This document shows, piece by piece, positions 6,746-36,873 of a stretch of 64,000 bases of DNA. The DNA comes from Deltaproteobacteria bacterium (GTDB lineage: Bacteria; Desulfobacterota; Desulfomonilia; UBA1062), in NCBI GenBank assembly GCA_029547045.1, contig JAKPQL010000065.1, positions 23,402-87,401 of the forward strand, in the 5' to 3' direction. Position 1 is the stretch's first letter. Each line of letters begins with the position of its first letter. The translations under genes and the position numbers were made by a program. The notes under the pieces are model-generated. The model did no database searches. It worked only from the letters and a program-made list of their open reading frames with translations, and had not been told where the DNA came from.

Positions 6746-7837
6746 ATGGAACGTGACATCTACCAGGAGCTCCGGGAGCGCATCGACCAGTACTCCGTGG
6801 GCATGAGCGCCTCGGGTAGCGGCAAGGAGATCGCCATCCTGAGGCGCCTGTTCAGCGAGGAGGAGGCCCTCGTGTACCTTGCGCTCAGCCGCAGGCTCGA
6901 ACCGGTGCGGTCCGTGGCGGCGAAGACCGGCATGTCAGAGAAGGAAGCGGCCCGCATCCTTGAGCGCATGAAAGAGAAGGGGCTGGTCTTCCCGAAGACC
7001 TCCCGGGGCGAGAAGTACTACGCCGCAGCCCCCTTCATGCACGGCTTCTTCGAGCACCAGCTCTACCGGAAGGACCCGGACCCGGAGCTCCCGCGGCTCA
7101 TCGAGGACTACCTCACCGGCGGTTTCTTCCCCCGGACCCGGACGCTCCGCACCATACCCATCCGCGCCGAGCTGCCCGACCACAAGAAGGTGCTCCCCTT
7201 TGACGACGTGCGGGAGATCATCAGGAGCAAGGACCGTATCGGCCTGTTCGAATGCGCCTGCGGCCACCACCTGAAGACCCTGGGCCTGCGCAGGTGCACC
7301 CACTCTGGCGAGGTGTGCATCGCCTTTGACTTCTATGCAGAATACCCCATCGAGGAGGCCGGGGTGGGTCGCTGGATCAGCCAGGCCGAGGCCCTGAACG
7401 TTGTAGAGTACGCAGAGGAGCAGGGACTGGTCCACCAGGTTGGCGGGGATGCGCGCAACGTGGAGTGCGTCTGCAACTGCTGCCCCGACTGCTGCACCAT
7501 CCTGCGCTTCCTCAAGCTCCTGCCCAACCCGGGCAGGGTGCTCTCGTCCAACTATACGCCGGGGTTCGACGGGGAGAAGTGCACTGCCTGCGGCGCATGC
7601 GTGAAGATCTGCCCCATGAAGGCGCTGCGCCTCGATGGCGAGACCATGGTGACCGAGACCGAGCGCTGCATCGGCTGCGGGCTCTGCGTGAGCGCCTGCA
7701 CCCACGGGGCACGCACGGTTCTCCTCAAGCCCGATGGAGTCATCAGAAGGCCGCCATCCCCGGAGAAGTACACCTTCATGCGCTCCTCCGTGGATTTCTG
7801 GGCAGACCTCGCCGTGGATGGAACGGACCGGCGATAA
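6746..7837 (+). CDS. Fe-S protein with an N-terminal winged-helix-like domain, a central Cys cluster and a C-terminal 2x[4Fe-4S] ferredoxin domain
   Basis: The ferredoxin motifs are 'CTACGACVKICP' and 'CIGCGLCVSAC'. The central Cys-rich stretch is 'CACGHH...CTHSGEVC...CVCNCCPDCC'. A GGGAGGG RBS lies 5 nt upstream of the ATG. Confidence 0.7.
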   Translation: MERDIYQELRERIDQYSVGMSASGSGKEIAILRRLFSEEEALVYLALSRRLEPVRSVAAKTGMSEKEAARILERMKEKGLVFPKTSRGEKYYAAAPFMHGFFEHQLYRKDPDPELPRLIEDYLTGGFFPRTRTLRTIPIRAELPDHKKVLPFDDVREIIRSKDRIGLFECACGHHLKTLGLRRCTHSGEVCIAFDFYAEYPIEEAGVGRWISQAEALNVVEYAEEQGLVHQVGGDARNVECVCNCCPDCCTILRFLKLLPNPGRVLSSNYTPGFDGEKCTACGACVKICPMKALRLDGETMVTETERCIGCGLCVSACTHGARTVLLKPDGVIRRPPSPEKYTFMRSSVDFWADLAVDGTDRR

Positions 7838-18006: not shown

Positions 18007-18585
18007 TCATGCCTGCAGACCCCGCAGGACGAGCCTGACGGCCTCGTCGTACATGCGCGAGGCGCTCACGCCCTCGGACTTCACGTACCGCTTGATGAGG
18101 AACATGATGTAGATGGAGAAGAAGAGCTCCGCGGCGTGGTCCACGTCCACCTCCACGAAGCGGCCCTCGTCGATGCCCTGAGCGATGATGTCCTTGATGA
18201 GCTGCATGGCGCCCAGATTGATCTCGTAGAAGCGGTCCTCCCGGGGGGTGAGGCTGAAGATGCTCGGGTCCTTCATGAGCACGGCCCTCAGATCCTCGTG
18301 GTCCACCAGATACTCGAAGGACAGCCTCGCCATGACGGAGAACTTCTCCACAACATCCTCCGAGCGGGCCACGGCAGCGCCCACGGCGTCGCGCCACTCC
18401 TGCAGGGCGCTGCTCACGGTCTTCTCGTACAGGTCGCGCTTGCTGGAAACGTAGAAATAGATGTTGCCCTTGGACATGCCCATGGCGGCGGCCACGTCGT
18501 CCACCGTGGTCTTCTGGTACCCGAACCTGGCGAACAGCTTCAGTGCCGCGTTCAGAATGTCCTTCCTCTTCTGCTCCTTGTCCAT
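18007..18585 (-). CDS. TetR/AcrR family transcriptional regulator
   Basis: The N-terminal HTH reads 'ILNAALKLFARFGYQKTTVDDVAAAMGMSKGNIYFYVSSKRDLY'. Confidence 0.85.
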   Translation of the reverse strand: MDKEQKRKDILNAALKLFARFGYQKTTVDDVAAAMGMSKGNIYFYVSSKRDLYEKTVSSALQEWRDAVGAAVARSEDVVEKFSVMARLSFEYLVDHEDLRAVLMKDPSIFSLTPREDRFYEINLGAMQLIKDIIAQGIDEGRFVEVDVDHAAELFFSIYIMFLIKRYVKSEGVSASRMYDEAVRLVLRGLQA

Positions 18586-18599
18586 GGCCGTAATGAATA

Positions 18600-18626
18600 A
18601 TTGACCATTTGATTATTTCGGTCAAT
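18600..18626. promoter_or_regulatory. Inverted repeat ATTGACC-N13-GGTCAAT upstream of tetR; candidate operator
   Basis: The two 7-bp arms are perfect and lie 15-40 nt upstream of the tetR start. Confidence 0.4.
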
Positions 18627-18907
18627 CGGTATACTAGCCGAAGATGCTTTCCCTGTCAATCTGCGGGAACATGACGGCTCCCTCCTGTGACAATATCCAT
18701 GCTCTTCAGGTTGAACGATCCGATGATTCGGGTACTCCTGCCGGTCAGTCGCCACCCGGGCCTCTGCCGGCACAGGCGATAGTCCTCCGCGGCCGCGACC
18801 CTCAGGACGGCCTTGCAGTGTGACCGTCCATGGTATAGAAACTGAGGGGACCTCGTCGGCAGGTTGTGCCGGCCTGGCGAAGATCTCCCCAAAGGCGGGC
18901 ATGCTCC

Positions 18908-20305
18908 ATGGCACACGACCACGGCATCTTCCTCGACCACGCCGCCTCCACCCCCGTGCACCCGCAGGTCCTGGGCCTCATGCTCCCCTTCTTCGGCAAC
19001 CACTTCGCCCCGCCCTCGAGTCCATTCTCCGCCGGGGGAAAGCCCCGGGCGGCCCTGGAGCAGGCACGGCAGTGCGTTGCAGGGCTCATCGGGGCGGGTG
19101 CGTCAGAGATCGTCTTCACCGCTACGGGCACCGAGGCGAACAACCTGGCCCTGCTGGGCGTTGCCCAGGGCCGCAGGGGCCACGCCGTGGTGAGCGGCTT
19201 CGAGCACGCCTCGGTCCTGCACGCCATGGAGCATCTGCAGTCCGCTGGCATGGAGCTCACCGTGCTGGGCGCCGGTCCCGGCGGCATGGTGGACCCTGCG
19301 GAGGTCAGCGACGCCCTGCGGGACGACACGGTCATGATCAGCGTCATGCATGCGTGCAACGAGACCGGGGTGATCCAGCCCGTGGAGGAGATCGGCCGCA
19401 TGGCCAGGGAGCGCGGCATAACCTTCCACTGCGACTGCGTGGCCAGCGCGGGGAAGATCCCCGTGGACGCTGCCGCCCTGCACGCCGACCTCATCTCCCT
19501 CTCCTCCCACAAGCTCTACGGGCCCAAGGGCGCAGGCGCGCTCTACGTGCGCAGCGGCACCAGGATATCCCCCGTCCTCTTCGGCTCCGCCCAGGAGAGA
19601 GGGCTGCGGCCTGGCGCGCTCAACATGCCCGCCATTGTGGGTTTCGGCAGGGCCTGCGAGGAGGCGCGCTCCGCCCTGGTTTCAAACGCGGACCATACCC
19701 GGGGGCTGCGGGACCTGCTGGAGCGAGAGATCTCATCGCGCATCCCCGGCGTGACGATCAACGGCGCCGGCTGCTGCCGGGTCCCCCACATCTCGAGCAT
19801 CTCCTTTAGCGGTATCCAGGCCGATAACCTGGCGGCCTGGCTCGACCTGCACGACATCACCGTGTCCGGAAGGGGATCGCGCCTGTCGAGCGTCTCCCCC
19901 CGGCGCCTGGAGGCGCTGGGCATCGCCCAGGACCTCGCACCGGGCACGGTCCGGTTCAGCCCCGGGTGGGAGAACACCGAAGACGAGATGCGCGAGGTGG
20001 CCCATGCCGTTGAAAAGGCAGTCTCCGGGCTCAGGGAATTCGCCCTGCAGCTCCGGGACGCGCCCGTCTGCATCATGGCCCTCCTCTCCAGGAACCACGT
20101 GGAAAGGGCATGCGCCTACCTCTCTGGGGAAGGCATCCCCTGCGCTGTCACGGCCCGGCCCGAGGGGCTCTCCCATCTGCCGGGGCCCGAGGCGGCCATC
20201 GCTGTTCCATACGCCCGCCGGCAGGACGTGGAAAGGATCCTGGGCTCCCACAGGGTCACTGCCGCAGGCAGGCATTGTCTCTCCCGTTGGGGGCACAGGC
20301 CATGA
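18908..20305 (+). CDS. Cysteine desulfurase (NifS/IscS-like class V aminotransferase) with a ~90-aa C-terminal DUF3343-like extension
   Basis: The PLP lysine region is 'SLSSHKLYGPKGAGALYV'. The active-site loop is 'ACNETG...RSG'. The C-terminus 'VCIMALLSRNHVERACAYLSGEGIPCAVTARPEGLSHLPGPEAAIAVP' resembles the stand-alone DUF3343 protein at 34615..34863. Confidence 0.8.
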   Translation: MAHDHGIFLDHAASTPVHPQVLGLMLPFFGNHFAPPSSPFSAGGKPRAALEQARQCVAGLIGAGASEIVFTATGTEANNLALLGVAQGRRGHAVVSGFEHASVLHAMEHLQSAGMELTVLGAGPGGMVDPAEVSDALRDDTVMISVMHACNETGVIQPVEEIGRMARERGITFHCDCVASAGKIPVDAAALHADLISLSSHKLYGPKGAGALYVRSGTRISPVLFGSAQERGLRPGALNMPAIVGFGRACEEARSALVSNADHTRGLRDLLEREISSRIPGVTINGAGCCRVPHISSISFSGIQADNLAAWLDLHDITVSGRGSRLSSVSPRRLEALGIAQDLAPGTVRFSPGWENTEDEMREVAHAVEKAVSGLREFALQLRDAPVCIMALLSRNHVERACAYLSGEGIPCAVTARPEGLSHLPGPEAAIAVPYARRQDVERILGSHRVTAAGRHCLSRWGHRP

Positions 20306-20339
20306 CACGCATAGCCATCCTGTCCGTCAGGGGGTGCAG

Positions 20340-21254
20340 ATGAAGACCGTGGTGTTCGCCCAGGGCGGCATGGGCATCATGGGCATCAGGAGGCTGCTGC
20401 TCGACGGCTTCACCGTGGATCTCATCGTGTCAGACAGGGATCAGCCGGGCTGCTCAGTGGACATGGTATCGGTGGAGGACCTGGCCCGGGAGCTCTCGAT
20501 ACCGTGCGTCTTCCCCGCCAACCCGAACCAGTTCGGGTGGATGGAGAGGATCAGGGACCTCAAGCCGGACATGATCTTCTCGCTGGGATACCGCAGGGAG
20601 CTCAAAAGGCAGCTCCTGGCCATCCCTGCGCACGGAGCCTTTGCCGTGCACGAGTCGTACCTGCCCCTCTTCCGCGGCCCCTGCCCGGTGAACTGGGCCA
20701 TCATCAGGGGCGAGGCCTCCACCGGGGTGACGCTCTTCGAGATGACCGACCAGCCGTATGCCGGGCCCGTTCTCGTCCAGCGCCGGGTGGACATCGCCCC
20801 CCTGGAAACGGCCCGCACCCTCTCAGACAGACTCATGCACGAGGCCGACACGATGCTGGCAGGCATCCTGCCCCGCATGAAGTCCCTGGACATCCCCCGG
20901 ACCCCCCAGGACCCTTCCCAGGCCACCACCTTCGGGGAACTGACGCCCGAGGACGGCCGCATCACCTGGGAGAAGCCTGCCACCGAGCTCTTCAACCTCA
21001 TCAGGGCCTGCTCACCTCCCCACGCCGGCGCCTTCGGCCTGCTGGGGGACGACATGGTCTTCTTCCGGTGGGCACTGCCTGCCCAGGACGTGCATCACGA
21101 GCCGGGCGCCATCGTGACCTCGGGGGAAACGGTCCTTGTCGGGACCGGCTACGGGTGCCTGCGGCCCGAGGAGATCGAAGTGAACGGCAGGACCCTGAAG
21201 GGGAGCGCCCTGACCCGGTTCTTCCACGAACACCGGGGAGAATCCCTGCAGTGA
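20340..21254 (+). CDS. Formyltransferase family protein (Fmt-like N- and C-domains)
   Basis: The 'HESYLPLFRGPCPVNWAII' stretch corresponds to the Fmt 'HxSLLPxxRG' motif, and a C-terminal Fmt-type domain follows. AGGGGG lies 5 nt upstream. Confidence 0.7.
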   Translation: MKTVVFAQGGMGIMGIRRLLLDGFTVDLIVSDRDQPGCSVDMVSVEDLARELSIPCVFPANPNQFGWMERIRDLKPDMIFSLGYRRELKRQLLAIPAHGAFAVHESYLPLFRGPCPVNWAIIRGEASTGVTLFEMTDQPYAGPVLVQRRVDIAPLETARTLSDRLMHEADTMLAGILPRMKSLDIPRTPQDPSQATTFGELTPEDGRITWEKPATELFNLIRACSPPHAGAFGLLGDDMVFFRWALPAQDVHHEPGAIVTSGETVLVGTGYGCLRPEEIEVNGRTLKGSALTRFFHEHRGESLQ

Positions 21255-21300
21255 GGCGTACGTCTCTCGGGCAGAGCCCGCATACCGTGCGGCCCTCTCT

Positions 21301-21903
21301 CTACTCCTCTTTCCGGTGCATCCGGGAGATGAACCTCGTCCACCTGCGCGGCCCCGGGAGCCGGTACGGCGTGACCGCCTCGCTCACGAAGCGCACGTCC
21401 TCCACCGAGTAGAAGGCCTGGGGGTTGTGCTCCTTGATCATGTTGACAATGTGCTCGATGTTGGTGCGCTCAACGATGGTGAAGATGACCTTCACCGGGC
21501 CCGTCACCCCTGCGGCGTCGATGATGGTGAGCCCGAACCCTGCCTTGCGAAGCACGCCGATGAGCCCGTCCGCCTCCCTGCGGGTGATGATGCGCACGAT
21601 CACCTTGCCTATGGAGAGCCTGTTCTCGATGAGGATGCCCACGAAGTTCCCCGCGGCGAAGCCTGCCGCGTAGGCGATGAAGCAGACCGGGTTGTCCAGG
21701 TTCGCGAAGATCTGCCGGATGACCATGAGCCAGATAAGCACCTCGAAGAAGCCGATGAGTGCGGCATAGTACCTGAGGTTGCGGTTGATGAAGATGATCC
21801 GGACCGTGTCCAGGCTCACGTCCAGGATGCGGGCCGAGAAGATGAGCACAGGCAGGACCACCCATGTGTACGCCGCAGAATTGAAGAATTCCGGCATTGC
21901 CAT
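21301..21903 (-). CDS. DUF2179/YitT-family (UPF0316) membrane protein
   Basis: The N-terminus 'WVVLPVLIFSARILDVSLDTVRIIFINRN' and the C-terminal DUF2179 stretch 'VIVRIITRREADGLIGVLRKAGFGLTIIDAAG' are diagnostic. The start is uncertain. Confidence 0.7.
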   Translation of the reverse strand: MAMPEFFNSAAYTWVVLPVLIFSARILDVSLDTVRIIFINRNLRYYAALIGFFEVLIWLMVIRQIFANLDNPVCFIAYAAGFAAGNFVGILIENRLSIGKVIVRIITRREADGLIGVLRKAGFGLTIIDAAGVTGPVKVIFTIVERTNIEHIVNMIKEHNPQAFYSVEDVRFVSEAVTPYRLPGPRRWTRFISRMHRKEE

Positions 21904-34614: not shown

Positions 34615-34863
34615 TCAGGACGGACGTGGCCGGGAATCGGGCAGCCTGTGGACGCCTGCCACCCTGACCCTGCCTGCCAGGACCTCCTCGGCGAGGGCCC
34701 GCTGGTGGGCGTCCACGCGGATGCAGACACCGCAGTCTGAGCTGATATGCCGGGGGATCGGCACGAGTTTGTAGGGTATGCCCTTCTCCTTCAATGCCTG
34801 CTCGGCGGCCAGGGTCGCGCTCACCGACTCGAAGACGAGCACCCAGCGTTCCACCGTGCTCAT
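34615..34863 (-). CDS. DUF3343 (putative Se/S carrier-like) small protein
   Basis: The 82-aa product carries 'VLVFESVSATLAAEQALKEKGIPYKLVPIPRHISSDCGVCIRV'. Its start overlaps the yedF stop (ATGA). Confidence 0.7.
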   Translation of the reverse strand: MSTVERWVLVFESVSATLAAEQALKEKGIPYKLVPIPRHISSDCGVCIRVDAHQRALAEEVLAGRVRVAGVHRLPDSRPRPS

Positions 34864-35441
34864 ACCCGCACGATCCGGCCCGCCTGGAGCATGGTCTGGG
34901 CGATGTCGTACATGTTGGACACCGATCCCACCGCGAGCCTGTCCTTGAGGTCGAAGAAGCCCAGGCAGGTCCCGCACACCAGTATGCGCGTCCCCTGGCC
35001 GGCCAGGGCCTGCAGGTCGTCCAGCACCTCGGATCCTGCCACGGCGAGCCTCACACCGGTGTTGAACAGGATGAGCACATCGGGTCGGGGGGACGTGTCC
35101 TGAAGCGTGTGGATGAAGCTCTTCATGAGGACCGACCCCAAGGTGTCGTCGCCGCTGCCCATGGTGTCGGAGCCGAGGACAGCCACCACCGGTCCCCCCT
35201 CCGCGATGATCTCCCCCGCCATGGGACATGCGACCTGCCGGGTTATGGTGAGCAGGGTGTCGAGACCCTGCTCCTGCTCGGAAACCGCACAGCCGAGACT
35301 GGTCGCGAGCTTCCTGACGTTCTCCCGGGCAATGGCGTCGTTCACTAGGACCACGACTTCGTCGTGATCAGCCAGGGCCTTCTTCGCCAGGATCACTGGC
35401 TGCGGGCATGCCAGCCCGCGGGCGTCAACGGTATGTGCCAT
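34860..35441 (-). CDS. yedF: YedF-type selenium-metabolism protein (TusA-like N-domain plus DsrE/DsrF-like C-domain)
   Basis: The TusA 'CPxP' motif is 'TVDARGLACPQPV'. The C-terminal half is DsrE-like ('VLILFNTGVRL...ILVCGTC'). GGAGGGAG RBS is present. Confidence 0.7.
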   Translation of the reverse strand: MAHTVDARGLACPQPVILAKKALADHDEVVVLVNDAIARENVRKLATSLGCAVSEQEQGLDTLLTITRQVACPMAGEIIAEGGPVVAVLGSDTMGSGDDTLGSVLMKSFIHTLQDTSPRPDVLILFNTGVRLAVAGSEVLDDLQALAGQGTRILVCGTCLGFFDLKDRLAVGSVSNMYDIAQTMLQAGRIVRV

Positions 35442-35475
35442 GGGTTCTCCCTCCTTGCGTTGTCCTGTTGCGCGC

Positions 35476-36639
35476 TCACCGATTGTATGCGATGGATGCA
35501 ACGGCATCAATGGTCTCGTCGATATCCCGGGCCGTGTTGAAGAACCCGATGCTCGCCCGTACGGTGCCCTGGGGGAAGGTCCCCAGCGCCCTGTGGGCCG
35601 AGGGCGCGCAATGCAGCCCGGACCGGATCATGATGCCGAACTCGTCGTCGAGCCTGAAGGCCACTTCGGAGGGCTCCACGCCCTCCAGGGTGAAGGACAC
35701 CACGGCGATCCTGTGATAAGGGTCCCGCGGGCCGATGACCCTTATGCCCTCGATGGCGGCGAGGCCCTCCATGAGTCTGCGGGCGAGCGTCATCTCGTGT
35801 TCCCTGATCCGCTCGACGCCCTGGGAGGCCACGAAGTCGATCCCGGCGAGCAGCCCAGCGATGCCGGGAGTGTTCGGGGTGCCGGACTCGTACTTGTCCG
35901 GCATGAAGAGCGGCTGCTCCTCGCGCTCCGAGGCGCTCCCCGTCCCGCCCATGGCCAGCGGCGAGATGCGTGCTTCGAGCCCTTCCCGGACATAGAGCCC
36001 CCCGGTTCCCTGGGGACCGTACAGGGACTTGTGCCCGGTGAAGGCGAGGAGGTCTATGCCGTCGCGTCCCACGTCGATGGGCAGGCACCCGGCGGTCTGG
36101 GAGGCATCCACGCACAGGGGGATGCCCCGCTCACTGGTGATGGCCCCCACCTGGGACACGGGCATGACGGTGCCGGACACGTTGGACGCATGGGTGAGCA
36201 CCACCAGCGCGGTCTGCCTTCTGATGGCCTTCCCCACGTCGTCCGGATCGAGGGTTCCGTCCGCGGAGCATGCCACCACGCTCACCTCGACGCCCCGCAG
36301 CTCCATGGCGCGCAGGGGCCGCATCACCGAGTTGTGCTCCATGGCGGAGGTGATGACGTGGTCCCCGGGCCCGAGCATGCCCTGGATGACTATGTTCAGC
36401 GCCCCGGTTGCGTTCCCGGTGAACACGAGCCGCAGGGGATCGGATATTCCGAACAGGGCCGCTGTTTGCCGTCGGGCCTCTGCGATGACGCGGGCCGCCT
36501 CTATGGACAGCGTGTGCCCGGACCTCCCGGGGTTCGCAGCTGCCTCCCTGATGATATGCTCCACGGCACGCGGCACGCATTCGGGCTTGGGCCAGGTGCT
36601 CGCGGCGTTGTCGAGATAGATGCGCAGCTTCTCTTCCAT
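35476..36639 (-). CDS. Cysteine desulfurase family protein (class V aminotransferase; possible selenocysteine lyase)
   Basis: The PLP lysine region is 'LAFTGHKSLYGPQGTGGLYV' and the catalytic Cys loop is 'RSGLHCAPSAH'. AAGGAAGA RBS is present. Confidence 0.85.
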   Translation of the reverse strand: MEEKLRIYLDNAASTWPKPECVPRAVEHIIREAAANPGRSGHTLSIEAARVIAEARRQTAALFGISDPLRLVFTGNATGALNIVIQGMLGPGDHVITSAMEHNSVMRPLRAMELRGVEVSVVACSADGTLDPDDVGKAIRRQTALVVLTHASNVSGTVMPVSQVGAITSERGIPLCVDASQTAGCLPIDVGRDGIDLLAFTGHKSLYGPQGTGGLYVREGLEARISPLAMGGTGSASEREEQPLFMPDKYESGTPNTPGIAGLLAGIDFVASQGVERIREHEMTLARRLMEGLAAIEGIRVIGPRDPYHRIAVVSFTLEGVEPSEVAFRLDDEFGIMIRSGLHCAPSAHRALGTFPQGTVRASIGFFNTARDIDETIDAVASIAYNR

Positions 36640-36873
36640 GTCTTCCTTGGCGAGTGGGGTTTGCGTGCAGAGGCTTGCTTGTTTGCCGGAGCAGGTACCT
36701 GCACGTGTTCCTGTGCCGAGCACTAGAGGATCAGGCCTGCCCTGTCAAATGCAGAAAATGCATACCGCGCACAGTCCGATGCGTAATGAGAATGCATCAA
36801 GACACAGATCCGAGGGTGAAGGCCCGGGCCGCCCATCGCGCCGGGGCCTTCTCCTCCATGCCTGGGGAAGATT

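Follow-up and report, generated by a model that had tools for sequence, protein, structure and literature searches.

Two adjoining genes in a 64,000-nt stretch of DNA from a Deltaproteobacteria bacterium (Desulfobacterota; Desulfomonilia; UBA1062; contig JAKPQL010000065.1, positions 23,402 to 87,401; hereafter the window) encode a protein derived from NifS/IscS cysteine desulfurases with a C-terminal DUF3343-like domain (gene A; NifS*) and a homolog of the ArnA-type formyltransferases (gene B; FT*). With moderate confidence, we favour the explanation that they form a two-gene remnant of an arn locus for the modification of lipid A with aminoarabinose, in which both former enzymes have been remodelled and are probably coupled. 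This reading builds on the anatomy of the two genes, their residue losses, homology, synteny and selection, and would extend from these to the loss of both activities, a functional coupling and a present role. Both co-directional open reading frames (ORFs) had been described in an initial annotation and are present, as are all peptide strings quoted there. That annotation had read gene A as a desulfurase hard-wired to its own putative persulfide or perselenide carrier, and had seen in its pairing with a formyltransferase (FT) a possible pointer to a pathway of cofactor or tRNA modification. The features of the pair are the following:

18908-20305, plus strand: gene A, a NifS/IscS-derived class-V protein dependent on pyridoxal 5'-phosphate (PLP), with a C-terminal DUF3343-like domain (NifS*); ORF of 465 aa
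18926-19990, plus strand: PLP-dependent core, residues 7-361 of gene A; Pfam Aminotran_5 (PF00266), E 3e-62
19862-19909, plus strand: degenerate catalytic loop, residues 319-334 of gene A, VSGRGSRLSSVSPRRL; phmmer alignment to PDB 9wep and family alignment
20057-20287, plus strand: DUF3343/PF11823-like C-terminal domain, ~residues 384-460 of gene A; profile comparison and predicted fold
20330-20334, plus strand: Shine-Dalgarno sequence GGGGG of gene B, within the 34-nt intergenic spacer; from the sequence
20340-21254, plus strand: gene B, ArnA-type formyltransferase homolog (FT*); ORF of 304 aa with ATG at 20340

The NifS-like protein and its fused domain

The start of gene A at ATG 18908 is supported by a public protein of equal length and ~100% identity (P0001). 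Desulfurases in the PDB match gene A with E-values down to 8e-82 and an identity of 36-39% to the solved enzymes. An AlphaFold2 model based on 51 family sequences was predicted with high confidence (predicted local distance difference test, pLDDT, 91.3; predicted template modelling score, pTM, 0.90), and its top Foldseek matches were NFS1, IscS, and NifS (E 1e-45, TM-score 0.9 on the target). The PLP-lysine motif SSHKLYGPKG, pointed out in the initial annotation, lies inside the Aminotran_5 match and holds Lys202 (codon 19511-19513). Along with this lysine, gene A retains Thr75, His100, Asp176, His201, and the substrate-carboxylate arginine Arg349, so that the IscS residues Lys206, His104, Asp180, His205, and Arg354 all find their equivalents. 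Across the clade of 32 proteins to which gene A belongs, Lys202, His201, Asp176, His100, and Thr75 are conserved in 32/32 members, Arg349 in 31/32, and Gln179 in 28/32. Judged by these residues, gene A most likely binds PLP and an amino acid. It scores below the cut-off of every NCBIfam desulfurase model, with 360 bits against 531 for NifS (TIGR03402), 303-308 bits against 548-643 for the IscS models, and 288 against 480 for DndA.

In class I desulfurases, the signature SSGSAC(T/S)S carries the cysteine on which the persulfide is formed, Cys328 in IscS (PMC8300815). The "catalytic Cys loop" that had been ascribed to gene A reads VSGRGSRLSS: it contains no cysteine, is 2 residues shorter than that of NifS, and is followed by a region in which the histidine of PSHVL is lost. 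This is a property of the clade and not of the window alone. In an alignment of 121 sequences, the catalytic column is occupied by cysteine in 65/66 ordinary NifS proteins and 5/5 distant fusions, against 0/32 members of the gene A clade and 0/12 of the next clade out. Residues 325-328, with a pLDDT <50, are the sole internal low-confidence stretch of the model. A serine nucleophile in place of the cysteine was considered and rejected, as the aligned position varies within the clade (Phe, Leu or Arg).

The C-terminal tail had been proposed, from visual comparison, to be a fused DUF3343-like domain, and profile methods bear this out. Taken by itself, the tail matches positions 2-64 of the 69 in the PF11823 model (Se_S_carrier, formerly DUF3343) with a score of 14.9 bits (E 0.019), under the Pfam gathering score of 25 bits; among its relatives, however, 40 of the 51 full-length family members match PF11823 at E <= 0.1, the best at 4e-12. 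A profile of the clade's tails aligned over 71 columns with the stand-alone DUF3343 protein that had been noted ~15 kb away (hhalign E 8e-5; gene at 34615-34860, minus strand; PF11823 E 3e-19). When the same profile was run against 1.84 billion representatives, it recovered fusions and fragments thereof, two stand-alone DUF3343 proteins (P0212, P0216), and a few spurious repeat proteins. The predicted fold is a confident beta-alpha-beta-beta-alpha-beta domain of ~70 aa. On these profile and fold comparisons, we regard homology of the tail to DUF3343/PF11823 as secure. A missed stop codon or an assembly artefact is ruled out, since a search of public assemblies returned ~50 independent full-length NifS-DUF3343 fusions (460-492 aa) with a constant domain boundary.

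DUF3343 proteins have a highly conserved cysteine in the loop between beta2 and beta3, which forms the basis of the hypothesis that they act as selenium/sulfur (Se/S) chaperones (Lin et al. 2015, PMC5322559). The tail of gene A had been said to lack this cysteine, and indeed the cysteine of the SSDCG motif aligns (hhalign) with the proline of "SHLPGPE" in gene A; the carrier cysteine is absent from all 32 clade members. Two other tail cysteines are largely kept, Cys388 in 31/32 members and Cys412 in 28/32. With neither the loop cysteine nor the DUF3343 cysteine left in any member, gene A cannot run the canonical desulfurase-to-carrier persulfide relay, and the proposed hard-wired donor-carrier pair is not supported. 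We infer from the sequences that sulfur mobilisation via a persulfide is no longer a function of gene A.

A basic C-terminal helix found in most of the family, "KGLCR...E..FWEKV..IKK", is deleted in the lineage of the window (the window and P0001-P0003) at 20270-20305, which leaves just 34 nt between genes A and B. The helix looks amphipathic and could have served in membrane or partner binding.

The formyltransferase homolog and the arn operons of relatives

Gene B contains both Formyl_trans_N and Formyl_trans_C domains (Pfam), as initially annotated, and it was correctly set apart from the housekeeping fmt. Its likeness, however, is to ArnA rather than to Fmt. All NCBIfam models scored under their cut-offs, with E-values of 2e-69 for PRK06988, 1e-67 for ArnA, and 4e-36 for fmt, and with 234 bits against a cut-off of 316 for NF005414, 229 against 777 for NF005998, and 125 against 201.5 for TIGR00460 (fmt); the ArnA models thus lie ~100 bits above the fmt model. 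Matches in the PDB give the same order (ArnA 2bln, E 2e-56; Fmt, E 1e-26). With the ArnA models and 2bln this far ahead of Fmt, an identity as housekeeping fmt was rejected.

The catalytic triad of ArnA is reportedly Asn102-His104-Asp140, an assignment in line with the invariance seen among homologs. At these positions gene B carries Ala102 (20643-20645), His104 (20649-20651), and Tyr140 (20757-20759). Asp140 is kept in 77/83 FT homologs, and at least four of the six exceptions (P0121, P0122, P0127, P0128) adjoin a NifS* gene without any other arn gene. Given the loss of both Asn102 and Asp140, formyl transfer is very probably no longer an activity of gene B.

The origin of the pair can be read from its relatives. 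To gather twenty-odd loci, proteins were looked up by exact match and species-representative genomes were scanned once with a 147-aa alignment covering loop, PGWEN motif, and tail; 20 of the loci were mapped by tblastn. All loci recovered belong to metagenome-assembled genomes (MAGs) labelled Desulfobacterota, "Deltaproteobacteria" or Desulfomonilia, and all carriers are uncultured. Every NifS* gene that lacks both cysteines is followed on the same strand either by a complete arn operon or by an FT gene alone. The complete order after NifS* is arnT - arnB - (LPG_synthase_TM) - arnC - FT - UDP-glucuronic acid (UDP-GlcA) dehydrogenase/decarboxylase - arnD, found in L003/L004, L005 (=L015), L006, L017, L018, and L020. 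The FT alone follows NifS* in the window, L001/L002, L010, L007 (=L019), L011, L012, L013, L014, and L023; the protein pairs P0004/P0130 and P0006/P0122, each with contigs of equal length, suggest two further loci of this kind. A convergent DUF2179 gene follows in both arrangements, in L023 after a small toxin-antitoxin insertion, and gene B is ~51% identical to the FTs within the complete operons of sister lineages. In the 64 kb of the window, no arnT, arnB, arnC, dehydrogenase, or arnD gene was found. With an arn operon standing at the same position in sister lineages, we consider the NifS*-FT pairing to be the remains of an arn locus. A role of the pair in cofactor or tRNA modification, as initially suggested, does not agree with an ArnA-derived FT that has lost N102 and D140, nor with arn operons at the sister loci.

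The state of the triad follows the two arrangements. Asn-His-Asp is kept in every operon FT that could be read intact (L003, L006, L017, L018, L020). In the FT-only loci, Asp140 is replaced in 9/9 mapped cases, by Tyr in seven, by His in L011, and by Gln in L023; Asn102 is kept in L011 and L023 and substituted in the other seven. The main FT-only clade has Tyr140 in 7/7 and Pro114 in 7/7 members at an identity of only 46-61%, which looks like a new constraint rather than decay.

Several of these loci showed peculiarities of their own. In L023, FT* and the DUF2179 gene are separated by an inserted toxin-antitoxin pair of the HepT/MNT (nucleotidyltransferase) type (6867-7521). Two long-read MAGs contain frameshifts, in arnB, FT, and the dehydrogenase gene of L005 (=L015; 11195-15316) and in NifS* of L020 (9121-10498), which may be errors of sequencing or the first signs of decay at these loci.

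Selection, trees and competing explanations

Both genes are under purifying selection, and neither is a pseudogene. Compared with L001, which is 89% identical, the ratio of nonsynonymous to synonymous substitution rates (dN/dS) was 0.25 for gene A (0.19 for the core, 0.50 for the tail) and 0.28 for gene B, next to 0.12-0.27 for three neighbouring genes. Bootstrapped distance trees were built for both proteins. In the NifS* tree, the FT-only loci L011 and L023 fell within operon-bearing lineages in 100% of the bootstraps, while a single group of all FT-only loci was obtained in 0%. This topology calls for at least two independent reductions, each of which kept exactly NifS* and FT. Two substitution patterns agree with two events: Asn102 lost together with D140Y, and Asn102 kept together with D140H or D140Q. 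The two genes are often translationally coupled: the stop and start codons of NifS* and FT overlap in L001, L007, and L010.

Taken together, these results would fit the following course. The ancestor of gene A would have been a NifS/IscS cysteine desulfurase that gained a C-terminal DUF3343 carrier domain; both sulfur-handling cysteines would then have been lost in the clade, while the PLP/amino-acid site was kept, leaving a protein that may now carry out cysteine-independent chemistry or act as a ligand-binding partner. Gene B would descend from the ArnA-type UDP-Ara4N N-formyltransferase of the same operon, having lost Asn102 and Asp140. The rest of the operon, which serves lipid A modification with 4-amino-4-deoxy-L-arabinose, would have been lost with NifS* and FT* staying side by side, a reduction that by the NifS* tree would have happened twice. 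From their sequences and arrangement, we infer that genes A and B act together, probably as a complex, and neither in sulfur mobilisation nor in formylation. Their role may be inherited from, or related to, envelope aminosugar modification or its control.

A number of observations weigh against this reading. The FT tree places all FT-only copies together in 87% of the bootstraps, which would be compatible with a single reduction event; this grouping may reflect long-branch attraction among fast-evolving copies. In several loci, 100-200 bp separate NifS* from the next gene, so that co-transcription is not universal. Operons with the same arn gene order but without NifS* exist (L024, 5343-11790, and the P0134 locus), and NifS* is thus not a general arn component; the adjacency of NifS* and FT could be synteny inherited within one lineage. 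Gln179, the equivalent of the PLP O3' contact Gln183 of IscS and otherwise invariant, is Ala in the lineage of the window only, which together with the deletion of the C-terminal helix hints at extra relaxation in that lineage.

Some of these points feed an account that would need no coupling at all: an arn operon once inserted between NifS* and the DUF2179 gene, and the adjacency of NifS* and FT* is inherited synteny between proteins with independent roles. The existence of arn operons without NifS*, the intergenic gaps, and an FT tree compatible with a single origin of FT* speak for it, as does the origin of all NifS*-arn loci in a single MAG lineage, in which further downstream genes are shared too (DUF2179, MBL, HlyIII). 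The FT-alone state, however, needs two separate deletions (arnT-B-C and DH-arnD), which by the NifS* tree happened twice; three FT-only loci have overlapping stop and start codons, and the upstream neighbours vary while the downstream partner is constant. We therefore regard this account as unlikely. Simple decay, with both genes functionless and merely awaiting deletion, could draw on the catalytic residues lost from both, on Gln179Ala and the truncated C-terminus in the window lineage, on the dN/dS of the tail, and on a GC content slightly above that of the flanks. Yet ~10 species-level lineages, 46-64% identical, have kept the ORFs intact, dN/dS resembles that of neighbouring genes, the PLP-site residues are invariant, and FT* conserves even its substitute residues Tyr140 and Pro114, all of which makes decay very improbable.

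Two further explanations would leave gene A in sulfur or selenium metabolism. It could be a cysteine-independent selenocysteine (Sec) lyase or cysteine-sulfinate desulfinase, functionally unrelated to the FT, in which selenide or sulfite would leave the PLP adduct without an enzyme nucleophile and be captured by Cys388/Cys412 of the tail or by another protein. Such chemistry is possible, since in E. coli NifS homologs the exchange of Cys for Ala reportedly abolishes the desulfurase reaction and spares the Sec-lyase and sulfinate-desulfinase reactions. The fully conserved PLP and substrate-binding residues and the conservation of both tail cysteines would suit such an enzyme, as would the selenium-trafficking genes for YedF, DUF3343, and an SclA-like enzyme at 34.6-36.6 kb of the window and the YedE-like Sulf_transp genes adjoining the outgroup fusion L022. 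Within the clade, however, no neighbour is selenium-related and the constant neighbours are arn genes or FT*; the window already holds the complete SclA-like/DUF3343/YedF set 15 kb away; Gln179 is lost in its lineage; and the retention of FT* is left unexplained. We find this explanation, the main alternative for gene A, doubtful. The model of the initial annotation, a desulfurase or Sec lyase hard-wired to a DUF3343 carrier and feeding a formyltransferase-dependent cofactor or tRNA pathway, is right about the DUF3343 homology and can point to a preserved NifS fold and PLP site, and other fusions do retain their cysteines (P0049, P0090, and the P0032-43 group). Both relay cysteines are nevertheless missing in the window and all 32 clade members, the FT is ArnA-derived and lacks N102 and D140, and relatives place the gene beside lipid A arn genes and not beside tRNA or cofactor genes, so that little credence can be given to this model.

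Within the explanation that we favour, a remnant of an arn locus, a more specific proposal is that the Cys-less NifS-DUF3343 protein and the Asn/Asp-less FT have become dedicated partners in a complex whose activity is new, and that this complex outlived the arn pathway on at least two independent occasions. At this level of detail the proposal is speculative and probably goes too far. Such a complex might use PLP and folate in a reaction with an amino acid or aminosugar as substrate, or might control envelope modification by acting as a ligand-sensing switch. If true, its ancestors would have been one enzyme of sulfur relay and one of lipid A modification. The public labels "cysteine desulfurase" and "methionyl-tRNA formyltransferase" cannot be correct as statements of activity. 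The arn-linked clade offers a traceable case of two adjoining enzymes that lose catalytic residues and are still under selection, and the intermediates L011 and L023, with Asn102 kept and Asp140 changed to His or Gln, make the question of the pair's role experimentally approachable.

Neighbourhood, wider family and known systems

The pair is flanked by two genes on the opposite strand:

18007-18585, minus strand: TetR-family regulator gene, divergent from gene A; ORF, with TetR_N genes at the equivalent place in L001, L003, and L006
21301-22032, minus strand: DUF2179/DUF5698 gene, convergent, marking the downstream boundary; tblastn map of 20 loci, Pfam labels in L001, L003, and L007

The TetR gene is a possible regulator of the NifS*-FT* module. 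A palindrome, ATTGACC-N12-GGTCAAT, lies at 18601-18626 in the region between the divergent TetR gene and gene A, where it overlaps two minus-strand sigma-70-like promoters just upstream of the TetR gene (18597-18659); by its sequence and position, it is likely a TetR operator. No sigma-70-like promoter was found upstream of gene A, and no terminator-like site in 18400-21500, neither between genes A and B nor after them. Rfam and tRNA scans of the window gave no match. The GC content is 0.65-0.70 over 18900-21300 (genes A and B), next to 0.58-0.62 in the immediate flanks. In L001, a BtrH_N/DUF4872 gene stands between TetR and NifS*, and such a gene is also found upstream in L007/L019, L012, and L017; the corresponding 950-bp segment (L001 6893-7842) is missing from the window at 18753-18762, where the junction is clean with ~10 bp of overlap. 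In L024, one of the arn operons without NifS*, a divergent two-component system occupies the place that NifS* has in the other lineage.

Further along the window, an intact Se/S trafficking cluster was found at 34615-36645 on the minus strand. The proteins encoded are the stand-alone DUF3343, with the cysteine of SSDCG in place, YedF (TIGR03527, 2e-60), and an EF2568/SclA-type class II desulfurase (TIGR01977, 1e-142) whose catalytic cysteine is present in "SGLHCAP". Gene arrangements of the DUF3343/YedF/SclA type have been tied to selenium use (Lin et al. 2015, PMC5322559).

NifS-DUF3343 fusions exist in both domain orders, and among 52 fusions the loop cysteine and the tail cysteine are distributed almost complementarily:

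arn-linked clade (32): loop Cys, none; tail Cys, none
P0032-43: canonical loop Cys, none, with another Cys two residues earlier in three; tail Cys, 10/12
P0044, P0046-48: loop Cys, yes; tail Cys, none
P0049: loop Cys, yes; tail Cys, yes
P0090, with DUF3343 N-terminal to a normal NifS: loop Cys, yes; tail Cys, yes

The fusion groups outside the arn-linked clade are not found beside arn genes; their neighbours encode flavodoxin, DJ-1, or YedE-like Sulf_transp proteins with AFOR. For P0032-P0043 (e.g. L008, L021, L022), a flavodoxin gene lies directly upstream in two loci and YedE-like Sulf_transp genes downstream in one, and the DUF3343 cysteine of these proteins may have taken over as nucleophile or acceptor. 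It is these outside groups, and not the protein of the window, that fit the idea of a hard-wired relay. The fusions provide independent genomic (Rosetta-stone) support for the hypothesis that DUF3343 accepts sulfur or selenium from desulfurases, and those that retain their cysteines are proteins in which this hypothesis is testable. In the literature we found no report that deals with fusions of NifS and DUF3343, with NifS-like clades devoid of the cysteine, or with any connection of desulfurases to arn.

Both proteins can be set against well-studied relatives. Compared with the transformylase domain of ArnA (2bln), gene B aligns over residues 1-293 with 38% identity, covering both subdomains, and shares the MKTVVFA start, His104, and the SLLP..RG folate loop. 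It differs in the replacements N102 to A, D140 to Y, and Arg114 to Pro, in a degenerate SHEDDP motif, and in being a separate protein without the fused dehydrogenase domain. The tail of gene A shares whole-domain profile homology and the same layout with DUF3343/PF11823 carriers, but it is fused to a NifS core, its conserved cysteine has become Pro or Gly, and the neighbours of its gene are TetR, FT*, and DUF2179 rather than YedF, Sec lyase, or SelD. As for the core, gene A has the fold and the PLP/substrate residues of the class I desulfurases NifS, IscS, and NFS1; unlike them, it lacks the cysteine of the SSGSAC loop, which is 2 aa shorter, as well as the histidine that follows, and it carries the extra DUF3343 domain at its C-terminus.

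A precedent may be found in the IscS of Archaeoglobus fulgidus (PDB 4hvk, 4eb5), which is among the sequence and structure matches of gene A and which we take to be a naturally inactive NifS-like protein serving as a scaffold partner. Like gene A, it retains the NifS fold despite the loss of a key catalytic residue. The residue lost is a different one, since in A. fulgidus IscS the PLP lysine is missing and the cysteine present while gene A shows the reverse, and the partner of that IscS is IscU, whereas a formyltransferase-like protein stands beside gene A.

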